In this document: piece after piece, positions 18,133 to 19,808 of the stretch | Layout: every line of letters begins with the position of its first letter | Position numbering within the stretch: the stretch's first letter is position 1 | From: Escherichia coli | GTDB lineage: Bacteria > Pseudomonadota > Gammaproteobacteria > Enterobacterales > Enterobacteriaceae | Direction: 5' to 3' (one strand) | Length of the DNA: 64,000 nucleotides | NCBI RefSeq assembly: GCF_016026235.1 | Contig: NZ_CP065613.1 | Made by a program: the position numbers and the translations under genes | Notes under the pieces: generated by a model | Database searches by the model: none | Told to the model about the DNA's origin: nothing | The model's input: the letters and a program-made list of their open reading frames with translations, nothing else

Positions 18133-19808
18133 CTCAATTTACGCAAAATACCGCCATGCCTTCTTCCCTCTGGCAATACTGGCGCGGCCTTTCCGGCTGG
18201 AACTTCTATTTTCTGGTTAAGTTCGGCCTGTTGTGGGCGGGATATCTTAACTTCCATCCGCTCCTCAATTTGGTGTTTGCCGCGTTTCTGCTGATGCCCA
18301 TTCCGCGCTACAGCCTGCATCGCTTGCGCCACTGGATTGCCCTGCCGATCGGCTTTGCTTTGTTCTGGCATGACACCTGGTTGCCTGGCCCGGAAAGCAT
18401 AATGAGCCAGGGTTCGCAGGTGGCGGGGTTCAGTACCGATTATTTAATCGACCTTGTCACACGCTTTATTAACTGGCAGATGATTGGGGCCATTTTTGTT
18501 TTATTGGTGGCCTGGTTATTCCTGTCACAATGGATTCGCATTACCGTTTTTGTGGTTGCCATTCTGCTGTGGCTGAACGTACTTACCCTGGCGGGACCAA
18601 GTTTCTCCTTGTGGCCAGCCGGTCAACCGACGACCACTGTAACAACGACGGGTGGTAACGCAGCGGCAACCGTTGCGGCGACGGGGGGCGCACCGGTAGT
18701 GGGTGATATGCCCGCACAAACTGCACCGCCAACAACGGCGAACCTTAACGCCTGGCTGAATAATTTCTATAACGCGGAGGCGAAACGTAAATCGACCTTC
18801 CCGTCTTCGCTGCCCGCTGATGCTCAGCCATTTGAACTACTGGTGATTAATATTTGTTCTCTTTCCTAGTCGGATATTGAAGCCGCCGGGTTGATGTCGC
18901 ATCCGCTGTGGTCGCATTTCGATATTGAGTTCAAGAACTTTAACTCCGCCACCTCCTACAGTGGCCCAGCAGCGATCCGTTTACTGCGCGCCAGCTGCGG
19001 GCAGACTTCGCACACTAATCTGTATCAACCGGCAAATAACGACTGCTATCTGTTTGATAACCTTTCGAAACTGGGCTTTACCCAGCACCTGATGATGGGA
19101 CATAACGGCCAGTTCGGCGGCTTTTTGAAAGAAGTTCGCGAAAATGGCGGCATGCAGAGCGAATTGATGGATCAAACAAATCTGCCGGTTATTTTACTGG
19201 GCTTTGATGGTTCGCCGGTTTATGACGATACCGCCGTGCTTAACCGCTGGCTGGACGTTACCGAAAAAGATAAAAACAGCCGTAGTGCCACGTTCTACAA
19301 CACGCTTCCACTGCATGACGGCAACCATTATCCGGGCGTCAGCAAAACAGCGGATTACAAAGCGCGGGCGCAGAAATTCTTTGATGAACTGGACGCCTTC
19401 TTTACTGAACTGGAGAAATCGGGTCGTAAAGTGATGGTGGTCGTGGTGCCGGAACACGGCGGCGCGCTGAAGGGCGACAGAATGCAGGTATCTGGCCTAC
19501 GTGATATCCCTAGCCCGTCTATCACCGACGTCCCCGTTGGGGTGAAATTCTTCGGCATGAAGGCACCACATCAGGGGGCACCGATTGTCATCGACCAACC
19601 GAGCAGCTTCCTAGCTATCTCCGATCTGGTGGTTCGCGTTCTTGATGGCAAGATTTTCACCGAAGACAATGTTGACTGGAAAAAACTCACCAGTGGGTTG
19701 CCACAAACAGCACCGGTCTCCGAGAACTCAAATGCAGTAGTTATTCAATACCAGGATAAACCGTACGTTCGCCTGAACGGCGGCGACTGGGTGCCTTACC
19801 CGCAGTAA
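18129..19808 (+). pseudogene. bcsG: bcsG (cellulose phosphoethanolamine transferase) interrupted by an in-frame amber codon at 18867-18869
   Basis: ORF track splits BcsG into 18129..18869 (246 aa, membrane domain) and 18891..19808 (305 aa, catalytic domain) in the same frame. Across the break the translation reads S-L-S-*-S-D-I-E-A-A-G-L-M-S-H-P-L-W; I recall Trp (TGG) at this position in full-length 559-aa BcsG. Confidence 0.75.

Follow-up and report, generated by a model that had tools for sequence, protein, structure and literature searches.

A Natural Amber Codon in bcsG of Escherichia coli, Most Likely Arisen at a Recurrent Dcm Hotspot, in an Otherwise Intact Cellulose Cluster

Introduction

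The closest described counterpart of the allele analysed here comes from Salmonella Typhimurium, where the pseudogene produced by W247* in bcsG is an accepted marker for lineage 2 of ST313 (Singletary et al. 2016, MacKenzie et al. 2019, Pulford et al. 2021). In the Salmonella strain D23580, W247* abolishes the rdar morphotype, and wild-type bcsG complements the mutation; when the same SNP was moved into Salmonella 14028, colony patterning and calcofluor binding were both reduced. Some cellulose production persists in D23580, and the authors credited it to the retained N-terminal half of BcsG stabilising BcsA.

Nhu et al. (2024, Nat Commun) documented that bcs function has been lost convergently in E. 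coli. Their supplement gives BcsG W247* for the ST95 isolate TUM18673, and truncated bcsG is given for 53–57% of ST58, about 100% of ST453, 17% of ST155 and for other sequence types. A further in-frame stop is that in bcsQ of E. coli K-12; its replacement by a sense codon in strain AR3110 restored cellulose synthesis. As to the mutational background, an about 8-fold elevated rate of C>T change has been reported for Dcm sites in genomes of Salmonella and E. coli (Cherry 2018, in the form in which it is quoted in PMC9520237).

According to the literature, BcsG begins with five transmembrane helices at its N-terminus, which a linker joins to an alkaline-phosphatase-like domain in the periplasm, the latter crystallised as residues 163–559 and 185–559. 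Ser278 acts as the nucleophile, zinc is bound by Cys243, Ser278, Glu442 and His443, and the Cys290–Cys306 disulfide matters for function. On BcsA, the N-terminal domain serves as the docking site for three BcsG membrane domains.

Here, we analyse a 64-kb stretch of E. coli DNA (below, the window, always meaning this stretch at its full length), in which codon 247 of bcsG is an amber stop, and compare it with public sequences of E. coli and Salmonella.

Results

The features of the window that bear on this work are collected in Table 1. Direct reading of positions 18858–18881 gave TCT CTT TCC TAG TCG GAT ATT GAA, and the open reading frames flanking the stop comprised a 246-aa frame corresponding to the BcsG N-terminus and, as listed by the program, a 305-aa frame at 18891–19808 with a TTG start. 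Both are in one frame, the distance between their starts (18891 − 18129 = 762 nt) being exactly 254 codons. ATG 18894, the second codon of the 305-aa frame, is in frame 8 codons past the stop, and it is there, at M256, that gene callers place the start of the C-terminal ORF. Since bcsG was found at no less than 80% query coverage in 5,312 of the 5,426 complete E. coli genomes, the in-frame stop cannot be regarded as a chance feature of the sequence.

Table 1. Features of the window, with coordinates and strand
Feature	Position	Strand	Remarks
bcsC	5615–9088	−	intact
bcsZ	9070–10176	−	intact
bcsB	10183–12522	−	intact
bcsA	12533–15151	−	intact
bcsQ	15148–15900	−	intact
bcsR	15912–16100	−	intact
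bcsRQABZC block	5615–16100	−	divergent from bcsEFG
bcsE	16373–17944	+	intact, upstream in the bcsEFG operon
bcsF	17941–18132	+	intact, upstream in the bcsEFG operon
bcsG pseudogene	18129–19808	+	559 codons, the internal amber stop being codon 247
N-terminal ORF	18129–18869	+	246 codons and TAG; five transmembrane helices, linker, first strand of the catalytic domain with Cys243
Former Dcm site	18865–18869	+	CCTGG before the mutation, CCTAG after it; the G that was lost is the partner of the inner, presumably methylated, cytosine of the minus strand
Amber codon W247*	18867–18869	+	A for G at 18868
C-terminal remnant ORF	18894–19808	+	304 codons from M256; Ser278, Cys290–Cys306, Glu442, His443; lacks membrane anchor and export signal
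Ldr toxin/rdlD antisense RNA, type I toxin-antitoxin	19811–21183		three tandem copies, 483-bp period, just 3′ of bcsG
naRNA4 repeat element	28999–29080		adjoins tRNA-Pro (Rfam)
cspA 5′ thermoregulator and hokA/sok type I toxin-antitoxin locus	47502–48363		Rfam
IS1	53898–54665		between 9-bp direct repeats (CCATAGCCC), within yiaB by comparison with NZ_OZ197100.1

Among complete genomes, FDAARGOS_943 comes closest to the window, with 99.93% identity across about 38 kb. Of the three base differences between the two bcsG sequences, one is G>A at 18868 (TGG>TAG, W247*), and the others, at 18968 and 19613, are synonymous. The preliminary description of this DNA had proposed that an in-frame amber codon splits bcsG, that it stems from a Trp codon TGG by a single G-to-A change, and that the catalytic domain is encoded beyond the stop. 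The data clearly support each of these points: alignment with the reference allele of FDAARGOS_943, which had been suggested as a check, has TGG at codon 247, the two ORFs share their frame as well as homology to bcsG, and Ser278, Glu442 and His443 are all encoded past codon 247. The gene shares 99.8% identity with annotated bcsG, both of its fragments match PF11658 (Pfam), and the protein with W247 restored matches BcsG of PDB 9b8v over residues 1–559 (E = 0). Thus, by homology and by its place at the end of bcsEFG, which runs divergently from bcsRQABZC, the locus belongs to the BcsG family, but a single polypeptide joining the anchor and Cys243 to Ser278, Glu442 and His443 is not encoded. 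Since the stop at codon 247 parts the anchor and Cys243 from the other three residues, the locus is to be classed as a pseudogene of the BcsG family and not as its functional member.

The remaining cluster was found uninterrupted, just as the preliminary description had stated, with no internal stop or frameshift in bcsC, bcsZ, bcsB, bcsA, bcsQ, bcsR, bcsE or bcsF; nor were any found in the flanking yhjJ, dctA, pdeK, yhjV and dppBCDF. Polarity is not an issue, because bcsG is the last gene of its operon. The bcsB gene is one codon (3 nt) longer than in FDAARGOS_943 (2,340 vs. 2,337 nt, in frame), its product of 779 aa having the length called in most other loci. In one W247* genome (GCA_910664865.1; locus L006, positions 4406–7023), bcsA is also split, into ORFs of 547 and 305 residues, so that this strain has gained a second hit in the cellulose pathway.

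Some other features of the window also vary between strains. The number of Ldr/rdlD copies at the site next to bcsG ranges from 1 to 4 in related strains, and NZ_OZ197100.1 bears an IS1 in yiaA, the neighbour of yiaB, and an IS150 beside hokA, both missing from the window.

Examination of the mutated codon pointed to the origin of the stop. Codons 246–247, TCC TGG, hold a CCTGG motif (gene nt 737–741), and the change at nt 740 falls on its position 4, such that the mutated pair is the inner C:G pair of CCWGG, and G>A at 18868 equals C>T on the strand which Dcm methylates; the same change is found in Salmonella. The classical amber hotspots of lacI were reportedly placed at Dcm (CCWGG) 5-methylcytosines by Coulondre and colleagues in 1978. 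By this scheme, the minus-strand inner cytosine of the motif in codons 246–247 would be methylated by Dcm (methylation in the window strain is presumed), spontaneous deamination of the 5-methylcytosine would give thymine and a T:G mismatch, and a mismatch missed by very-short-patch repair would leave CCTAG on the plus strand, i.e., TGG>TAG. The position would then behave as a mutational hotspot, where the same change may arise again and again. The dcm and vsr genes are located beyond the 64-kb window.

The hotspot explanation entails two predictions that could be examined with public assemblies. The first is that stops at Dcm positions should be encountered more often than others, and for this we counted contigs carrying the exact truncated N-terminal products. 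The bcsG gene has nine Dcm sites, and of the 169 single-base changes that could create a stop in it, only 6 fall on Dcm-methylated positions (W84, Q94, W129, W209, W247 and Q542). The contig counts for the Dcm stops were 479 for W84*, 214 for Q94*, 829 for W129*, 101 for W209* and at least 1000 for W247* (median 479), vs. 15–475 (median 57.5) for 12 non-Dcm transition stops at residues 69 to 233. The excess is significant (one-sided Mann-Whitney p = 0.0011), the counts being a mixture of independent events and clonal expansion. The remaining Dcm stop, Q542*, gave only 3 contigs, its look-up requiring an exact match of 541 residues. On the non-Dcm side, the highest count, 475 contigs, belongs to Q233*; the blocks of this fragment are mostly contigs under 5 kb, and among the eight sampled loci, six had a true CAG>TAG change and two were contig-end partials, which means that the count is inflated. 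This outlier was nevertheless kept within the test. The recurrence at Dcm positions thus exceeds that at comparable non-Dcm positions, with clonal expansion and limited sampling as caveats.

The second prediction concerns the kind of stop: at Trp codons in the CCTGG context, TAG should prevail over TGA, both yielding the same protein. At W84, all nine loci had TAG, on at least four local haplotypes, and none had TGA. W129* was represented by two TAG haplotypes and one TGA haplotype (L027), W209* by a single TAG haplotype with no TGA, and W247* by TAG on three E. coli backgrounds and in Salmonella, with TGA on one haplotype, a metagenomic contig (L012, ERZ28665250). Taken together, the four Dcm-context Trp codons gave about 11 TAG vs. 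2 TGA haplotypes (binomial p = 0.011), while the non-Dcm control, W148*, showed one haplotype of each kind. Since TAG and TGA encode the same protein and yet TAG dominates, the data indicate a mutation bias rather than selection. The TGA codons at positions 247 and 129 show that not every event is hotspot-driven.

Many other bcsG-inactivating alleles were met in public E. coli assemblies with bcsEFG otherwise intact, namely W84*, Q94*, W129*, W148*, W209* (TAG), S222* (TCG>TAG), Q233* (CAG>TAG) and an 11-bp deletion at nt 572–582 of the gene; they come from loci L016–L019, L027–L040 and L050–L055. In addition, many short-read (Logan) contigs stop exactly at nt 698 of bcsG, thereby producing 232-aa “partial” BcsG calls (L056, L057), and a 232-aa fragment of Salmonella BcsG also exists (protein P0036).

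Recurrence might also reflect positive selection for a truncation that keeps the BcsA-stabilising membrane domain while losing the transferase, with no raised mutation rate involved. This reading finds backing in reports that ST95 and other lineages have lost bcs function convergently and in the high share of truncated bcsG in ST58 (53–57%) and ST453 (about 100%), as given by Nhu et al. (2024), as well as in the proposal of MacKenzie et al. that the N-terminal fragment holds BcsA at native levels. We nonetheless regard it as unlikely, because selection cannot distinguish TAG from TGA at the Dcm-context Trp codons, where TAG dominates, and because the earlier stops W84* and W129*, which wreck most of the membrane domain, are equally common. 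The two processes are not exclusive: selection may act in fixation, and the hotspot in the choice of the site. The recurrence of W247* should therefore not be read as a sign of selection without correcting for the Dcm-driven mutation bias.

A rival to the recurrent hotspot is that W247* arose only once and then spread among lineages by homologous recombination. The relationships of the alleles were examined on an alignment of bcsG from 20 fetched loci, with no more than 24 blocks sampled per look-up. The TAG alleles of E. coli fell into three haplotypes, 22–32 nt apart across bcsG, each having a closer relative with TGG. The first background comprises the window, L009, L011 and L015; its nearest TGG allele (L001) shows 3 differences, and it is 18–23 nt from the L002 family and 31 nt from L013. 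The second, the L002 family (L002–L008, L014 and L020), has its nearest TGG allele in L016, with 6 differences from L014, and is separated from L013 by 28–32 nt. The third is represented by L013 itself, which is only 1–2 differences away from the TGG alleles of L017–L019 and about 30 nt from all others. In pairwise comparison of the three backgrounds, the nearest flanking differences lie 8–22 nt from the mutated base, leaving an identical tract of only 17–29 nt.

In Salmonella enterica, the wild-type sequence at this place is CTC TCC TGG TCG, and BcsG is 85% identical to that of E. coli at the protein level, the DNA identity being about 76%. The exact 246-aa Salmonella fragment, whose sequence was rebuilt from protein P0036 and the DNA of L022 before the exact look-up, is indexed in 1,940 blocks, and TCC TAG was present in all four loci fetched.

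Within the L002 family, the variants L002, L006 and L014 are alike through the whole 5′ half of bcsG, so that here TAG could have been inherited by descent, with later exchanges downstream, and we conservatively tallied this family as one origin. Beyond the family, a single origin with spread by recombination is highly improbable: the identity of 17–29 nt around the site in the window, the L002 family and L013 is shorter than a plausible recombination tract, the same change occurs in Salmonella on DNA of far lower identity, and recombination would not account for TAG outnumbering TGA at CCTGG Trp codons. For the three main backgrounds we therefore rejected it. The haplotypes indicate that W247* has arisen independently on at least three E. 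coli backgrounds, one of which includes ST58 strains, and also in Salmonella. A common Dcm hotspot would explain this coincidence across the two genera.

We further considered what remains of the enzyme. Judging from the sequence, the stop keeps the membrane domain, the linker and the strand with Cys243, and takes away Ser278, Glu442, His443 and the disulfide. The product would be a membrane fragment of 246 residues with five BcsA-docking helices, and since the nucleophile and the zinc ligands Glu442 and His443 are gone, addition of phosphoethanolamine to cellulose should no longer be possible. By extension from Salmonella D23580, whose BcsG is 85% identical, the strain is predicted to lack the phosphoethanolamine modification, to make cellulose in a reduced amount and unmodified form, and to have lost rdar wrinkling.

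For bcsG to be still functional, the amber codon would have to be suppressed or read through, or else translation would have to reinitiate at M256 to give a two-piece enzyme. The in-frame ATG 8 codons beyond the stop, picked as a start by gene callers, would suit the latter, and its place as the second codon of the downstream ORF, noted in the preliminary description, was confirmed. The soluble domain suggested to start there is conceivable only in principle. The Shine-Dalgarno pairing of ATG 18894 (−2.2 kcal/mol) equals the median for random ATGs of the window; no hydrophobic export segment is present in the 304-aa product; the catalytic domain acts in the periplasm and needs the Cys290–Cys306 disulfide and also Cys243, which is on the other fragment; and in Salmonella, the allele retaining this M256 has a defective phenotype. 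As to suppression, the only tRNA in the 64-kb window is tRNA-Pro(CGG), and no Rfam recoding element was found in it. Retained function is thus very improbable, and both restart at M256 and suppression were set aside as lacking support: a Shine-Dalgarno signal at background level, no export segment, and tRNA-Pro as the sole tRNA of the window.

The bcsG TAG codon is a real, naturally occurring allele. Over 20,741 nt, the window matches contig UGFA01000002.1 of GCA_900449985.1 without a single difference, and bcsG, including the TAG, is base-for-base the same in GCA_001907535.1 and GCA_001907565.1. The public assembly collection lists the exact 246-aa product in 3,382 blocks and on at least 1000 contigs, with sources labelled E. 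coli. The exact 71-mer of the window was found in none of the 5,426 complete RefSeq E. coli genomes, while 744 of them contain it with one mismatch; TAG at codon 247 is present on a different local haplotype in 54 of the 5,426. The missing 71-mer match raised the idea of a Shigella source, which was discarded in view of the E. coli labels of the assemblies with the exact product, one of them holding the contig identical to the window. One of these 54, IBS28, is a published ST58 strain, and in the one genome of the 54 that was checked, RefSeq annotates bcsG as a pseudogene with an “internal stop”. A sequencing or assembly error in a strain that truly has TGG, the alternative raised in the preliminary description, can be dismissed as having virtually no probability: for all that the window differs by a single base from the nearest complete genome and its 71-mer has no exact match among complete genomes, the identical allele stands in at least three separate assemblies of the same haplotype, and the same stop on at least 1000 other contigs and in the 54 complete genomes.

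Discussion

In this work, we provided evidence that bcsG of the window carries a natural nonsense mutation, W247*, which has turned it into a pseudogene with loss of the catalytic residues and which, judging by sequence comparison, most probably arose by deamination of 5-methylcytosine at a recurrent Dcm hotspot. The strain is expected to lose phosphoethanolamine cellulose and the rdar morphotype despite an otherwise complete bcs cluster, which should be helpful in phenotyping and annotation.

Within the literature library searched, the pairing of bcsG with Dcm methylation returned only irrelevant matches, and the passages of Nhu et al. (2024) consulted draw no link between bcsG alleles and Dcm sites. 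The hotspot explanation, along with the caution it imposes on inferring selection, seems to be a small new point on a well-known mechanism. Its immediate implication is that the W247* allele of bcsG, so far used to mark invasive Salmonella ST313 as a lineage, is the product of a mutational hotspot and has several origins in E. coli too.

A broader generalisation can be put forward tentatively, and we would not insist on it. The Dcm codons of bcsG (W84, Q94, W129, W209 and W247), as built-in fragile points, could make the loss of phosphoethanolamine a high-rate and partly predictable switch across Enterobacteriaceae, with the alleles of ST313 lineage 2 and of the E. coli ST58 type being products of one hotspot, and W247* could be a separation-of-function mutation, given that the BcsA-docking domain is kept. 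If true, W247* would not abolish the cellulose of the matrix but replace its modified form by an unmodified one.

Comparison with the known systems places the locus as follows. The closest case is Salmonella ST313 D23580, which shares with the window codon 247, the change of TCC TGG to TCC TAG within CCTGG, the integrity of the other bcs genes, and the resulting 246-aa fragment followed by a 304-aa ORF from M256. The Salmonella allele nevertheless represents an independent event in another genus, and its phenotype was measured there, whereas for the window strain it is extrapolated. The alleles of Nhu et al. (2024) are likewise natural bcs truncations, with bcsG among the genes affected; in the lineage of the window, W247* resides on a bcsG haplotype other than the common one. 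In its presumed origin, the mutation resembles other Dcm hotspots, with an independently recurring transition at the inner C:G pair of CCWGG that gives rise to an amber codon, but unlike in the lacI case, the methylated C (methylation being presumed) is on the non-coding strand, such that the change is TGG>TAG and not CAG>TAG. Finally, the amber codon of bcsQ in E. coli K-12 provides a parallel of one in-frame stop in an otherwise intact cluster that alters the matrix phenotype; it differs in that another gene is hit, whose loss abolishes synthesis, while bcsQ is intact in the window. With W247*, bcsG of the window joins a known class of natural nonsense pseudogenes, and the allele itself has already been described; the finding refines the known biology of the bcs cluster and does not constitute a new system.
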